In this document: piece by piece, positions 8,272 through 62,159 of the stretch
Position numbering within the stretch: the stretch's first letter is position 1
How the letters are laid out: each line of letters starts with the position of its first letter
Assembly: GCA_964016885.1 (NCBI GenBank)
Contig: OZ024753.1
Span: 23,436,001-23,500,000, forward strand
Reading direction: 5' to 3'
Source of the DNA: Eledone cirrhosa
Lineage: Eukaryota
Length of the DNA stretch: 64,000 nucleotides
The notes under the pieces: model-generated
What the model saw: only the letters and a program-made list of their open reading frames with translations
Database searches by the model: none
Told to the model about the DNA's origin: nothing
Translations under genes and position numbers: made by a program

Positions 8272-8713
8272 TAAAATAAAGTTAAATAAAAGTCAAATGA
8301 TTAAAATTTAGCTTCGTTTATTACTGCTATATATATTACAGTGACAGCCATCTTTGGCTGTGACCTCTTCAGGCAGTTTGAATTAGTATGGTATAGACAA
8401 GTACATATGTTATTTAGGTGTATGATATTGTCAATACTCTGATATGCCCAGTTCCTTGTTGGGTTGTTAATTCACTGGGGAACTGGAGTCATATGATTCC
8501 AGTTCCCCAGTGAATTAACAACCCAACAAGGAACTGGGCATATCAGAGTATTGACAATATCATACACCTAAATAACATATGTACTTGTCTATACCATACT
8601 AATTCAAACTGCCTGAAGAGGTCACAGCCAAAGATGGCTGTCACTGAAATATATATAGCAGTAATAAACGAAGCTAAATTTTAATCATTTGACTTTTATT
8701 TAACTTTATTTTA
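8272..8713. repeat. Spacerless ~440-bp palindrome with an HHR in each arm
   Basis: Arms are reverse complements around CATATG at 8490-8495, with very few mismatches. Confidence 0.93.
8608..8662 (+). ncRNA. Type I hammerhead ribozyme (mirror copy 8323-8377 on minus has GAAA>GTAA)
   Basis: ACTGC-CTGAAGA-ggt cacagcca aaga tggctgt cact-GAAA-tatata-TA-GCAGT. Confidence 0.88.
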
Positions 8714-8830
8714 CACTGCTCCGGAGAAACCAAACCAACCTGCGCACTTCGACGAGTTCTCCAGCCAGCATACTGAGGTGTTGGTATACAACCAACATAA
8801 ACTCAAAATCTGTTTATATATATATATATG

Positions 8831-11800
8831 TTTCTTTTATTTGCCACCAGGGCATCAAAAGTGGGACAAGTACAATTGGGGGAGTTTACAAAGCAAGGCG
8901 TCCTCAATAAGGAGGAGGCAATAACAATATATAAAAATAAAATAAAATATAACAAAAAATAAAATTTATAACAAAGTCCTCAATAGAGAGGAGGCGCCTT
9001 GGGGGGGGGGGGGGGGGGTCGCACACACCCCCGAAAAAAGTGTGCAACCCTTCTCCCCAGGAGCACAGAGAAGGGGTGCTCCCTTGGTCTTTCATCTTCC
9101 TCACCTATAGTCTGATGTAGAGTGAAGGCCCATTCACACGGGCCATTCTCGCCACTTTCACCCATCTTTCATAGAAACGGCTGGGGTGCAGCACCTCTCT
9201 CTCCATCCTGATCCTTCTTCCGAAATGATATCGGAAGAAACGGACCAGTTATTGGCCAGAGAGAAAGGTGTCTGACCTCAGTCCTTTCAGACGCCTCCAC
9301 CATACAACCTCTTTCGCCATGGCTATTACGCACAGAAACACCGCCTCTCCTTCGTTTTTGAAGAGGGGAGGCGGCTTGATCGTTACAATAGACTCGGTGG
9401 TCAACCGGATCGGTCCCACCCTTGACAGCAGTTGTTCGACATAGCCCCACAGATCGGCAATGCCCGAGCAGTGTACCAATGCGTGTGCAACGGTTTCCTC
9501 GTCGCAAACGCATCTGGGACAGACCTTTTTCGATGGGTCCCTACCCGGGCGCCCGTGTCTGTAGAGCCTTTCTCGAACGGGCAGAGCCCTTCTGTAGCAT
9601 TGCTAGGCCAGGGACCTCTGGAAGTTATCCATGGGTCCCGGACTGAATGTCCTACCGAAAAGGTTGGCCAGTTCGTCTTCCTCCATGCCTAGGGCTTCTC
9701 CGAGGGCGTCGTCGCACCTGCTAACCACCAGCCCTCTATAGAATGACGAGGTGGATTCTCCACTGACAGCCGGGTCCGCCTGCCAGAGAGCCGTGAGCGC
9801 CTGGGCACACTCGGTGTGCCAGGCGCCCAGTTTTCTCGGTCTTTGCTTGACCTAGGATTGCAGCTAGGTGAGTGAGACGAGTCTGGGAAAGGCTCACCTC
9901 ACAAACGGGGCCCACACCGGTTGACCGGAGAGGAATACCTGAAGGTGCCGTAGCCTTAATGCGTGTTTACGTATCATCAGCCACGGCATCCCCAGCCCTC
10001 CTTTCGAAGGGTGTTGACAGCAGATGGATCTCCTCACCATAGGAGCCCGCTTCTTCCAAAGGAATTGGAAGAGTGCGCGCTCCATTTTGGCGAGCGTTTA
10101 CCTTGGGCAAGGCACAACGGTCAGGCGGTAGTAGATGACGGACGCTATATAAGTGTTCGCCACCTCCGCCCGACCTTTCAGGGACAGTTTGCACTCGGCC
10201 CACTTCTGGGTCAGTGCAAACACCCTGCTCGTCACCTCACCCCAGTTCTTCTCCACCTGGAGGTCTGGTCCGAACCAGACCCCGAGCAATTTCACCGGGC
10301 CCTCCGTCCAGCGCCCGACGACGCCATCGGAGGGCATCGATCTGCCCCTCCACGTGCCGAGTTGCAGACCGATCGACTTGTCCCGGTTCAGCTTAGCCCC
10401 TGTAAACCTTTCGTACTCCTCCAGTAAGGTGCCGATCGCCCCGATTTCTGAGGCCGTCGACACCATTACTGTTACGTCATCGGCGTAGGCTGACACTGCT
10501 TTCCGCAATCCCGGTTCCAACGGGATGCCCTGCAACAACTCCACCTTCCGCAGCAGTGGCTCTAGAATCACTACATACAGAAGGGAGGAGAGAGGGCACC
10601 CCTGTCGGATGGACCGCGCGATTTCGAACGGCTCCGAGAGGTAGCCGTTCACCTTGACCCTAGAGCAGATGCGGCTGCTGTGCATGGCATTGATCCAGCC
10701 CCTGAAAACGGGTCCGAAGCCTGCCGCCGCTAGCACCGCATCCAGGTAACCATGGTCGACCCTATCGAATGCCTTAGATTGATCCAAGTTGATCAGGGCC
10801 CCACCAAAGCCGGGTCGTTCCCAACCCTCTCTATGATGTATCGCATGAGGTGGAGGTTATCGTGGATGGACCTGGACGGGATAGCACATGTCTGCGCATC
10901 TCCCACCAGGTTGCCCACGACAAGCGCCAACCTCTTTGCTAGCACCTTGGCCAAAATCTGTAACTCTGTATTTAGCAGAGTTATGGGCCTGAAATTATTT
11001 ATATCGTCCCCCTTGTTCTCGTCCTTCCTCACTAGCGTGACTACGCCCTTGGTCACAGCACAGGGAATTCTCCCGTTCTGTCGCCAGTTGCAGTAGACCG
11101 CCTCGAGGAGTTCGGGGAACAAGTCCGGCATAGCTAGATATAGTTCGTATGGAAGACCATCGAGACCCGGGGATTTGCGTTTGCCGCATTGGCTCAGCAC
11201 GTCCTCTATCTCAGCGGCTGAAATCGGCTCCTCGCAGGACTTCGCCCCCCTGTCCGAGAGACGTGGCAGGCCGTCGAGGTATGGACCGAAGTCCACGTCC
11301 CCAACCGGCCCCCGCCCCTTCCGAACAATTCGGCAAAGTGCTTTTGAAAAAACCTCGCACATCTGCTTAGGTTCAAGGATCACCCGTCCATCCTGGTCTC
11401 GCAAAGACCGGATAGTGGATCTGCTCCCTCGTTTGGCTTCTGTCACGCGGGCCCAGCTAACAGCTTTGCTCCCCTCGTTTCCCAGAGCACGTATTTTGCT
11501 TCGGACGATGCAGCCTTCGTGTTTCGCGTCGAAGAACTGGCCCAGGGCCGTTCTCGACGCTAGCACTCTGGCCACGTCGCCGCTTCTAATTGCCTCTTCT
11601 ACACTATCTACCAACTCCCTTTCCTTCCTATTTCTATTGGAGGCTAACTCCTTACTAAATTCTATAGAGACTACTCTAATCTCTCTTTTGAGAGATCCCC
11701 ACCACCTGCTGTTGACGATGGCGCCCGTCAACCGCTCCTTAACTAAAGTGCTAATCCGGTTCCTGTAAGCCTTACTTGCCGGTAAGGACAAGTTGAGCTT

Positions 11801-60514: not shown

Positions 60515-60984
60515 ACGCCTGTCTCTATCCCCGTTTGATTGTCAAAATAGATATGAACATTCTTTATTAGTCTTAATTCTATCAACTCTTCTATTATTTA
60601 CCTTTTAATACAAACTGCTATAGATAAAATGAGATTTCTGATTTTTTGATTCAATTCCCTAGAGCAAATACCAGCTGACCACTAGCATTGATGTTATTTA
60701 GTAGCAATCGAAATCTCCCCCTTCCCCAATTGACACTTTATGATTAATACTACTGCACCAAATGACCAGCCCTGTCCACTGTCCAGTTGGTCAAGTAGAG
60801 ATTAAAATCGGCACCCCCAAAATTCTTATTTAGATTTACTCATGGTATTCTCATTAAAAACCCATTATATACTTGTTTAGCAGTAAATTATTTTACCATC
60901 TGTCATATTCTATCCCCTCTGTTCCTTCCTCTTTTACTAATATAAATACTTCAATTTTTCTGATTTTATCCAGTTTATCCAAAA

Positions 60985-61100
60985 TCTCTGAAGAAGTGAC
61001 AACTGATTATACATTTGCTATCGAATACTTGCTAACATTATATGATTACGCAAGCAGCGATACATAGGTATTCGGTCTGTTACAGAAACATATGTCAATA
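60985..61100 (+). ncRNA. Hammerhead-like motif in the Naiad 3' end, weak stem I (mirror 56225-56340)
   Basis: CTGAAGA-a gtgaca actga..tcggt c tgttac a-GAAA-catatg-TC; flanks pair poorly. Confidence 0.6.
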
Positions 61101-62159
61101 CCTAATAAATTCCTTTTTTAACAAAAGCACTTTCATTTTATATTCATCCTTTCTATATATATATATATATATATGTATATATATATGTATATGTATATGT
61201 ATATATATATATATATATTTATATGTATCTGCATATATATATATATGTATATATATGTATGTATATATATATACATATATATATATATATATATATATAT
61301 ATATATATATATATATATATATATATATATATATATATATATATATATATATATATATTTACATGTATATATATATGTATATGTATATATATATATATGT
61401 ATATATAGTAATAATAATAAATTTGAAGACTAAAATCCAAAGGGGGCTCGATAAGGATAATATATATCAAATATATAAGAACTGTAGAGCAGATATTTAT
61501 TAAAAGAACAGATTGATAAATTTATATATATAATTAATAACAAATTAATAACAGATATGTATATATATGTAAACGGAAAAAATGAAACGAAATTTCATTT
61601 CCACTCTTAGTACGGCTGTTACTTAAATATAGGTATGTATACGTACATACATATATGTATACAGACGTACAATAGTATGCATATATATATACATACATGC
61701 ACACATATATATATGTACGTATCGATTCACCGAACATTTATTATAATGCTCGGTGTGTTTGTAAACAAACATCCCGTATTAAGCCGTCTAACAACCATCG
61801 TTGCTCGATTGTTCAATACTGACAAAGGAACGCTGTACTAGATTCAAGCTTATTAGCTATCGTCAGCAACGTATACCTTCCTGCCAGATGATTGAACGTC
61901 TGAAAGTATATACTTTCCTTATGCATATTAACGGCTGAGCAGCCTAATTTGAATATCGAGTGGGTTAATCGGCCGGGTGCACCGAAAACGATAAACGGAA
62001 AAAAATGAAACGAAATTTCATTTCCCAATCTTAGTACGGCTGTTACTTAAATATAAGTATGTATACGTACATACATATATGTATACAGACGTACAATAGT
62101 ATGTATATATATATATACATACATGCACACATATATATATGTACGTATGGATATGGTGG

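Follow-up and report, generated by a model that had tools for sequence, protein, structure and literature searches.

Introduction

Penelope-like elements (PLEs) are most commonly arranged head to head (PMC3846280); their standard anatomy includes an inverted, 5'-truncated copy and a tail on one side only (PMC8557442), in line with the remark in an earlier sequence-only reading of this DNA that inverted 5' copies are common in PLEs. Target duplications of 8–10 bp are reported for Adineta PLEs (PMC8557442, PMC3846280, PMC2377424), and a C-terminal endonuclease (EN) following a Cys-rich linker defines Neptune (PMC8557442). Formation of the inverted structure was left to future in vitro work (PMC8557442). 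A lizard PLE in vitro cuts and extends both strands, with reverse transcription starting from two positions delimiting the tail, while the steps after first-strand synthesis are unvalidated in that study (PMC11167929). In L1 twin priming, the first cDNA stops near the second primer (bioRxiv 2024.08.27.596794). The literature on PLE insertion structure, supplements aside, gives no count of one-tail status or arm nesting among the matches listed. PLE palindromes are known to complicate genome assembly.

Here, we analyze a window of 64,000 nt of Eledone cirrhosa (GCA_964016885.1, OZ024753.1, 23,436,001–23,500,000, forward strand). The arms of its palindromes follow the polarity already described for PLEs; beyond this known rule, the single tail of each pair and the differing end points of the arms hint that both cut ends of the target start a copy.

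Results

Inverted Pairs in the Window

All seven inverted pairs listed by the earlier reading (P1–P7) are genuine inverted repeats with an arm identity of 95–99.9% (ungapped); one pair, P8, is added here. The coordinates quoted there omit the tail that one arm of each pair carries.

P1 (8272–8815) is a hammerhead-bearing, non-coding PLE end with a perfect palindrome at 8272–8713 (arms 8272–8492 and 8493–8713, ungapped identity 219/221, spacer 0); its right (plus) arm alone continues into a 102-nt tail (8714–8815), whose end recurs at 28570–28596. P2 (16928–17382) consists of a 93-nt tail (16928–17020), a minus-strand left arm (17021–17194), and a plus-strand right arm (17208–17382), with identity 167/174; the 13-nt insert at the junction is a repeat of the bases with which the sense arm begins. 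Its tail is 96% identical to the family copy at 53080–53173, and in other copies the family extends further upstream. The arms differ from each other at 7/174 sites and from other family copies at 12–17, hence, both come from one source. P4 (45532–48378; arms of ~1.27 kb at 45616–46909 and 47113–48378, 1211/1246) is a relative of the P2 family, and the 84-nt tail of its left arm aligns to the P2 tail; the spacer is element-type (ATAAA)n and is given to the left arm. P3 (21356–22283; arms 21432–21666 and 22046–22283, 226/233) bears a 76-nt tail on the left arm, to which its 379-nt spacer is assigned by strand composition.

P5 (48609–49748; arms 48609–48796 and 49483–49670, 179/188) has a 78-nt tail on the right arm and a 686-nt spacer with a nested insert. 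A short version of this structure, P5b (49809–49980), is probably a local duplicate of P5 with a central deletion, both left arms having one base in common that is absent from both right arms; being a duplicate, it is kept out of every count.

P6 (54384–55879; arms 54549–55138 and 55292–55882, 578/590) is built of a non-coding unit of ~592 nt. The left arm (755 nt) comprises one unit and a 165-nt tail, matched by another copy with the same fixed end; the right, tail-less arm (739 nt) begins 153 nt farther upstream in the unit. The 5' end of the tailed arm lies 2–5 nt from the unit position of the 3' end of the right arm, a near-coincidence expected by chance in ~2% of cases in a 592-nt unit (post hoc arithmetic). 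The three copies per segment carry 3, 2, and 0 private changes, with shared and private mutations inseparable.

P7 (56064–61155) is a Neptune-type PLE with aligned arms at 56170–58378 and 58947–61155 (2206/2209); a 106-nt tail adjoins the long minus-strand arm (56170–58949), the short arm (58947–61155) is on the plus strand, and the junction shows microhomology of 3–4 nt. P8 (50718–52585, minus strand) is a 5'-truncated PLE with reverse transcriptase (RT) and GIY-YIG remnants, a 53-nt tail (50718–50770), and a 46-nt inverted arm (52540–52585). Its empty paralogous site lies at 63501–63512 (plus strand) within the second copy of the host repeat (62845–64000). Judged against this paralogous, not allelic, site, P8 has a target duplication of 9–12 nt; the tail is missing from the empty site, and a single duplication encloses both arms. 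P1–P7 sit in TA arrays, in which a target duplication is unresolvable.

Coding Elements

The long arm of P7 carries a 712-aa frame with a 5'-truncated RT, a Zn-finger linker, and GIY-YIG (ORFs 56811–58949, minus, and 58949–60514, plus). This frame has no Pfam match; at least 45 homologues at E ≤ 1e-20 were found among 8000 candidates scored, almost all without a name, and the GIY-YIG motif order is present in their alignment. In P8, GIY-YIG is matched by Pfam (E = 1e-4), and the search for longer homologues of its endonuclease gave one match, without a name. P1–P6 have no ORF.

The minus-strand element at 1–5018, which extends beyond the window edge, had been labeled a Naiad. Its RT lies upstream of the C-terminal GIY-YIG, so that it is not a Naiad, an element with N-terminal GIY-YIG, CxC linker, and C-terminal RT. 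Its domains (N-terminal region, 4938–4435; RT, 4401–3749; thumb, 3601–3401; EN, 1890–1819 and 188–1) are colinear with P7 and are interrupted by an L1/Tx1-type piece (192–1828) and a second LINE piece (~1830–3226). The plus-strand fragment at 5020–5620 (right end approximate) is an inverted 5'-truncated copy of the same family, with the endonuclease C-terminus at 5064–5210 followed by the 3' UTR; it agrees with the reverse complement of 1–28 at 25/28 positions. A Cys-rich, Zn-finger-like linker precedes GIY-YIG in P7, 1–5018, and 14860–16848 and is kept in homologues; by this architecture, the three may be called Neptune-type, a linker being present in Nematis as well.

Hammerhead Motifs

A relaxed type I hammerhead descriptor gives 17 matches in the window, compared to 0.2 per locally shuffled window (20 shuffles, same descriptor). 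It was written with knowledge of the core variants in P3, P5, and P6, hence, the hits there are not blind; the first, strict version missed these three cores. Plus-strand hammerheads are located in the right arms at 8613 (P1), 17285 (P2), 22192 (P3), 48280 (P4), 49566 (P5), and 55723 (P6). The core variants are U4C in P3, G8A in P5, and U3-A8 in P6, those of P3 and P5 being non-canonical; judging from G8A, the hammerhead-like motif of P5 is probably dead. Minus-strand partners are found by the relaxed descriptor in P2 and P6 only; the partner in P4 (-45714) comes from the strict descriptor, and that in P1 is altered from GAAA to GTAA. P8 has a predicted core and stems, and P7 has a core without stem I. 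An Rfam scan of the window (E ≤ 1) yielded 138 matches, none at the gathering score and none to a hammerhead family; the miRNA matches among them are the palindromes and TA arrays and were discarded.

The PLE origin proposed earlier is correct. As expected for EN+ PLEs, P7 has a single ORF with PLE-type RT and GIY-YIG, the terminal repeat carries a type I hammerhead motif on the sense strand, and P8 shows a short target-site duplication.

Polarity of the Arms

Since one arm is the reverse complement of the other, a pair provides a single yes/no call. Hammerheads or ORFs place the left arm in minus and the right arm in plus sense in 7/7 listed pairs (p = 0.0078), exactly as had been claimed, with the caveat that the list was preselected by that reading. 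The pair of 1–5018 and the 5020+ fragment, for which the same had been stated, indeed agrees, and together with P8 the count becomes 9/9 (p = 0.002). The pairs at 19618–19777, 34487–34604, 50069–50192, and 27349–27383 have no strand marker and stay outside the count, as does 29242–29566 with its single weak motif (score 27). TA-rich 20-mers, which make up 6% of all 20-mers window-wide, adjoin 13/14 outer ends, and the TA targeting suggested earlier is right; the remaining end adjoins (TG)n and then (TA)n.

The rule is real and already described for PLEs, and it is limited to single-event pairs. Older neighbors at 22954–27373 (70–81% identical) are arranged tail to tail, and by our own tally the window contains about eight further PLE or hammerhead pieces that lack an inverted partner. 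Polarity as such follows from any model that anchors the 3' ends at the target.

Tails, Nesting, and Junctions

In 8/8 pairs (P1–P8), one arm is an inverted 5'-truncated copy and exactly one arm is tailed (tail 53–168 nt; p = 0.004 if arms picked sites independently). Wherever a second copy exists (P2, P6, P1), the tail proves to be element sequence ending at a fixed position; the tail-less arm ends at an inner site, 19–77 nt beyond the ribozyme cleavage position. Arms overlap by 46–2209 nt, and spacers of 203–1723 nt separate them in 5/8 pairs; the 5' ends coincide in P1, P2, and 19618–19777 (spacers 0, 13, and 0). The longer arm is the tailed one in 4/5 unequal non-tandem pairs (P3, P4, P7, and P8, not P5).

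In two pairs, P5 and P6, the arms are not nested. For P5, this results from assigning the spacer to the tail-less left arm by a strand-composition model (-64 to -75 bits), correct on 12/13 control segments (P8 is the miscall). We had read a degenerate plus-strand endonuclease in this spacer by eye; it scored 34–45 against a null of 37 ± 6 (n = 40), and neither strand of the spacer gave a signal with the protein profile, hence, that reading was dropped and composition used instead. A weaker case is 27630–28613, a relative of P1, with a tail-less minus-strand 3' end (27630–27675) and a plus-strand tail end (28570–28597); these end pieces have no mutual overlap and are separated by an insert, which we take to be of Helitron type.

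As P5b demonstrates, centers may be deleted after insertion, which blurs the junction evidence. Substitutions between arms show no A/G excess (10/76) and so no trace of editing.

Discussion

Mechanism of Formation

Across the eight pairs of this one window, priming from both ends of the target break is the best-supported mechanism, and we give it about an even chance of being correct. Each palindrome would represent one insertion of a PLE. The GIY-YIG endonuclease would nick TA-rich DNA with a stagger of ~9–12 nt, as the duplication at P8 suggests and the enzymology in the literature allows, and both target 3'-OH ends would prime reverse transcription. One cDNA would start at the outer site, that is, the tail end, and the other at the inner site, both being end points seen in the pairs. 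Neighboring units within a single tandem RNA may serve as the templates, or else two RNAs from the same source copy. Both cDNAs would stop early, and their 3' ends would be joined via microhomology of 0–4 nt or a short templated insert, as at the junctions described above, after which each cDNA would presumably be copied on the other. As a result, the 5' ends would meet centrally, the 3' ends and ribozymes would face outward, and each insertion would have a single tail. To the same degree, and jointly with this entire scheme, P7, P8, and 1–5018 may be seen as the autonomous type and P1–P6 as non-coding, hammerhead-bearing derivatives moved in trans.

Such two-ended priming, already suggested from sequence by the earlier reading, is favored by the one-tail pattern, the target duplication around P8, and the non-nested arms of P5 and P6, to which the non-overlapping pieces of 27630–28613, the fixed tail ends, the single source of the P2 arms, the stop of the tailed P6 arm close to the inner site (paralleled in L1 twin priming), and the two-strand cutting and extension seen in vitro (PMC11167929) are added; it is disfavored by the coinciding 5' ends of P1, P2, and 19618–19777, since independent truncations should rarely match. 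Also counted against it are the P5 spacer assignment, with composition as its sole basis, and the excess of longer tailed arms, which is what a fold-back on DNA predicts. There, a single nick would prime cDNA from the tail end, the 3' end of the cDNA would fold or jump onto itself and be copied toward the target, and the sense copy would be cleaved or halted on reaching the inner site, with the endonuclease as a possible agent, before its attachment to the second target end. Fold-back explains the coinciding 5' ends more simply, along with the 13-nt templated insert of P2, and a single tail per insertion follows directly from it; the tail may indeed arise when the endonuclease resolves an intermediate, as suggested in PMC8557442. 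However, it cannot yield P5, where the long arm is tail-less and the short arm tailed, or 27630–28613; it requires an extra template jump for P6 and a 1.7-kb loop with microhomology of 0–1 nt for P8; and in vitro, RNA-templated synthesis starts at the inner site (PMC11167929). On balance, we consider it unlikely.

A published proposal for head-to-head repeats and junction palindromes has the 3' end of an antisense RNA folding back, RT extending it, and the endonuclease integrating the hairpin (PMC3846280). This fits the perfect centers of P1 and 19618–19777, but later in vitro work points to target priming on sense RNA at both strands (PMC11167929), the spacers of 203–1723 nt require long RNA loops, and the fixed inner and outer ends are left without a reason, making it quite improbable here. 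Separate insertions of one family into one TA array, or later recombination or gene conversion, are more improbable still: TA arrays in the window do gather many insertions, two families apparently join head to head at ~14860, and an old inverted TA-rich pair with 91% identity against 81% in its flanks suggests conversion; yet no TA array lies between the arms in the eight pairs, apart from the element-type (ATAAA)n of P4, and polarity in 9/9 pairs, one tail in 8/8, and the single duplication around P8 speak against this. (The join at ~14860 was considered as an eighth palindrome and rejected, as 14548–14860 fails to align to the 3' end of 14860–16848.) Least credible of all is a sequencing or assembly fold-back artefact, for which the 99.9% arm identity of P7 and the perfect palindrome of P1 might speak. 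Arms diverge by 2–5% in 6/8 pairs, all eight are asymmetric at the tail, and P8 has a target duplication. Moreover, the TA flanks are not mirrored, which makes an artefact unlikely: G interruptions in the TA arrays of P7 are on the same strand on both sides (16G/1C left, 13G/4C right; Fisher p = 6e-5), with a similar result for P6 (p = 0.018; P3 and P4 are uninformative).

Within two-ended priming, we tentatively propose, at somewhat less than even confidence, a coupled reaction in which priming at one target end always uses the outer start site and priming at the opposite end always uses the inner one, the templates being, as part of the same tentative proposal, neighboring units in a tandem RNA or a pair of RNAs bound by a dimeric enzyme. 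If so, the one-tail rule, the non-nested arms, and the collision of end points in P6 would be a genomic read-out of the PLE integration step, countable over thousands of copies, and would displace the proposal of antisense self-priming. With ~10 young pairs in 64 kb, counts of tail status and nesting could separate two-ended priming from fold-back. Folding predictions suggest that a read-through transcript would form a long hairpin burying the ribozyme; the pairs are potential sources of long dsRNA and unstable palindromic DNA.

Comparison With Known Systems

Naiad/Chlamys, the N-terminal EN+ PLEs, share (TA)n targeting and the inverted structure with the pairs described here; Naiad, however, has an N-terminal endonuclease and no canonical hammerheads (PMC8557442), whereas in the present ORFs RT comes first and the endonuclease is C-terminal.

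Non-LTR retrozymes (bioRxiv 10.64898/2026.07.22.740005) are similarly non-coding type I hammerhead units, proposed to be non-autonomous PLE derivatives, and resemble P6, whose unit is repeated so that the ribozyme occurs twice in succession. They are defined there as direct tandem arrays, whereas the copies here have at most 1.3 units and are inverted. Instead of at least two direct tandem units with complete hammerheads, P6 has ~1.3 units per arm, and in its right arm the upstream ribozyme copy is cut at the junction.

In L1 twin priming and the proposed dual priming (PMC2837659; bioRxiv 2024.08.27.596794), both nicks prime, the 5' ends meet via microcomplementarity, and the target duplication encloses everything; P8, with two inverted segments, joined 5' ends, and one duplication, has the same form. 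In L1 twin priming, the second cDNA starts from a chance internal site, giving adjacent, barely overlapping segments; in the pairs here, the second end falls at a fixed position of the family close to the 3' end, which makes the arms overlap and form a palindrome. Only P6, if its RNA was tandem, fits the L1 arrangement, its arms abutting in the unit like twin-primed segments. The pairs here also have no poly(A), and the endonuclease is GIY-YIG rather than AP.

The closest match is with EN+ PLEs (Penelope/Poseidon, Neptune, and Nematis), with which the pairs share the inverted 5'-truncated copy, head-to-head junction, partial tandems, one-end tail, hammerhead in the pLTR, and AT or microsatellite targets (PMC8557442, PMC3846280, PMC2377424). 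They differ in that most are non-coding and in that their tails are longer, 53–168 nt compared to the 30–40 nt described (PMC8557442).

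Inverted pairs and their polarity

Self-comparison of the window recovered all seven inverted pairs listed by the sequence-only reading: P1 (8272–8713), P2 (17021–17382), P3 (21432–22283), P4 (45616–48378), P5 (48609–49670), P6 (54549–55882), and P7 (56170–61155). Their arm alignments span 174–2209 nt at 95.2–99.9% ungapped identity, with spacers of 0, 13, 379, 203, 686, 153, and 568 nt, respectively. The type I hammerhead descriptor matches 17 times in the window vs. 0.2 in shuffles; in P1–P6 it places a hammerhead in the right arm on the plus strand, with variant cores in P3 (U4C), P5 (G8A), and P6 (U3–A8, a variant described for Penelope-like elements, PLEs, in PMC4209133). 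The orientation of P7 is given by its ORF. With each pair counted as a single binary call, the proposed polarity (left arm minus-sense, right arm plus-sense, 5′ ends joined centrally, ribozymes outward) is seen in 7/7 pairs of this selected list (p = 0.0078); the unlisted pair P8 (50718–52585) and the pair formed by element 1–5018 and the fragment at 5020 also obey it, yielding 9/9 (p = 0.002). TA-rich sequence adjoins 13 of 14 outer ends, against a 6% background. The rule is limited to single-event pairs; diverged relatives at 22954–27373 (70–81%) are arranged tail to tail, and about eight hammerhead or PLE pieces in the window have no inverted partner. The minus arm is longer in all six unequal non-tandem pairs (P3, P4, P5, P7, P8, and 1–5018; two-sided p = 0.03), which, if the window is intronic, may reflect selection against sense insertions.

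Element 1–5018, previously called a Naiad, was mislabelled: it aligns colinearly with the P7 protein, endonuclease last, in the order N-terminal region, RT, and thumb (4938–3374), then GIY-YIG (188–1), with two LINE pieces inserted between, while Naiads carry the endonuclease first (PMC8557442). The fragment at 5020 belongs to the same family and encodes the endonuclease C-terminus on the plus strand; 25 of its 28 compared positions match the reverse complement of 1–28. Hence the pair does follow the rule, as claimed.

Other elements of the window

The window is AT-rich (GC 37%) and full of repeats, with 123 tandem-repeat rows, (TA)n predominating, and resembles invertebrate genomic DNA. Several PLEs are accompanied by L1/Tx1-type, RTE-type, and further LINE pieces, in which Pfam detects only RT, endonuclease, and zinc-finger domains; the LINE clade labels are presumptive, from their motifs. 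Two near-full-length two-ORF L1/Tx1-type LINEs (8815–14006 and 39711–45229, 95% identical) lie on the minus strand adjoining (TA)n, the latter with open ORF1 (592 aa) and ORF2 (1153 aa); an L1/Tx1-type 3′ piece lies at 192–1828. Inserts 5705–7700, encoding a 220-aa frame with STPR repeats, and 27678–28540 have related ends and, by their terminal motifs, are presumably Helitron-type. The P5 spacer holds a short nested insert (49215–49347), flanked by a 37-nt direct repeat and resembling 52022–52066, which we take to be probably a SINE 3′ end.

At 14548–16848, members of two different families meet head to head without intervening TA: on the left a minus-sense piece that has a hammerhead at −14806, on the right a plus-sense Neptune-type element whose hammerhead is at +16756. 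They end 193 and 38 nt past their cleavage sites, respectively, and may have arrived in one insertion from two RNAs or in separate events. Inverted TA-rich arrays 25148–25404 and 26117–26305, belonging to an old tail-to-tail pseudo-palindrome (23746–27373), are 91% identical (171/187), the adjoining unique sequence 81%, possibly due to gene conversion between inverted repeats. A perfect 160-nt palindrome, 19618–19777 (region 19512–20394, longer left arm, relative at 32955–33145), is joined directly to a 5′-truncated RTE-type LINE piece; the type I descriptor finds no hammerhead in this region. Palindrome 29242–29566 (region 28623–29566) has an 18-nt spacer and a right arm interrupted by a LINE endonuclease piece; its left arm has a direct repeat at 28623–28725 as well as a weak match to the hammerhead at −29121. 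Near-perfect short palindromes 34487–34604, 50069–50192, and 27349–27383 carry no strand marker, the first folding back from a repeat also found at 61556–61722 and 61991–62148. Other type I motifs (14306, 17604 with a G6 variant core, 17909, 52976, 54269, and 63894) belong to solo or partial-tandem copies, including direct repeats 17780–18284/18897–19403.

Tails and target duplication

Exactly one arm carries a tail, an extension of 53–168 nt at its 3′ end, in 8/8 pairs (p = 0.004 under independent choice by each arm between the two end sites); in P1–P6 the tail-less arm ends 19–77 nt past the ribozyme cleavage position. The tail is element sequence where checkable (P1, P2, P4, P6, and P8) and, judging by position, probably so in P3, P5, and P7. 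In vitro work with a PLE protein shows cleavage and extension on both strands of the target, with reverse transcription beginning at two RNA sites bounding the tail (PMC11167929). The host repeat of P8 has a second, uninterrupted copy at 62845–64000; comparison with this empty site gives a 12-nt overlap, and since 3 of these nucleotides also match the arm end, the target duplication is 9–12 nt.

Origin of the palindromes

As far as a single sequence can show, the palindromes are not artefacts. A sequencing or assembly origin is extremely improbable given the P8 duplication, between-arm differences of 2–5% in six of eight pairs, asymmetric 3′ ends in all eight, and unmirrored TA flanks: G interruptions in the arrays around P7, the most identical pair, lie on the same strand (Fisher p = 6e-5), as in P6 (p = 0.018), the arrays of P3 and P4 carrying no information. 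The sequence-only reading had both ends of a break in (TA)n priming cDNAs that are then joined. This is plausible, with about an even chance of having produced the palindromes, and draws some support from the tails, target duplication, and arm nesting. DNA fold-back of one cDNA, a less likely competitor, requires the tail-less arm to be contained in the tailed one. Such nesting is seen in P7 and P8 (by ORFs) and in P3 and P4 (by strand composition), and the arms are equal in P1 and P2; it fails, however, in P5 (assigned without protein support by a strand-composition model, −64 to −75 bits, 12/13 leave-one-out controls right) and in P6, where the tailed arm consists of a single 592-nt unit and the tail, its 5′ end lying 2–5 nt from its partner's 3′ end site. 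On the other hand, fold-back rather than two-ended priming is favored by coinciding 5′ ends in P1, P2, and 19618–19777, with the P2 family reaching further upstream in other copies, and by the tailed arm being longer in 4/5 unequal non-tandem pairs. The two routes may both operate. Self-priming on an antisense template, proposed in PMC3846280 for head-to-head copies, is improbable here, and independent insertions or conversion even more so.

Judged by a GFK motif conserved among homologues, the P7 junction has 3–4 nt of microhomology, and two of the pair's three mismatches lie ≤10 nt from the join; the P8 junction has 0–1 nt of microhomology, and the P2 junction is a 13-nt templated insert. 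P5b (49809–49980), a short probable duplicate of the P5 structure, shows deletion of palindrome centres after insertion, which also counts against two-ended priming.

Predicted transcripts

Read-through transcripts of P1, P2, P3, and P5 are predicted to fold into long hairpins (−261 to −495 kcal/mol), with 44/45, 45/46, 55/56, and 83/86 ribozyme bases, respectively, paired to the far arm; hence, they would be dsRNA with a masked ribozyme. Arm differences show no A/G excess (10/76).

Comparison with described elements

The polarity observation is correct, one mislabelled element aside, and is already known PLE anatomy. In the literature searched (main texts, mostly of open-access papers), we found neither twin or dual priming applied to PLE palindromes nor counts of tail status. 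Inverted PLE terminal repeats (pLTRs), tails, and 8–10 bp duplications are described in PMC3846280, head-to-head being the arrangement most often observed; other papers note paired hammerheads on opposite strands 100–700 bp apart (PMC4209133) and inverted terminal repeats as the commonest form in Drosophila (PMC2377424). The collision point in P6, one post hoc case with a chance of ~2%, resembles L1 twin priming, where, according to PMC2837659 and bioRxiv 2024.08.27.596794, the first cDNA stops at the second primer.
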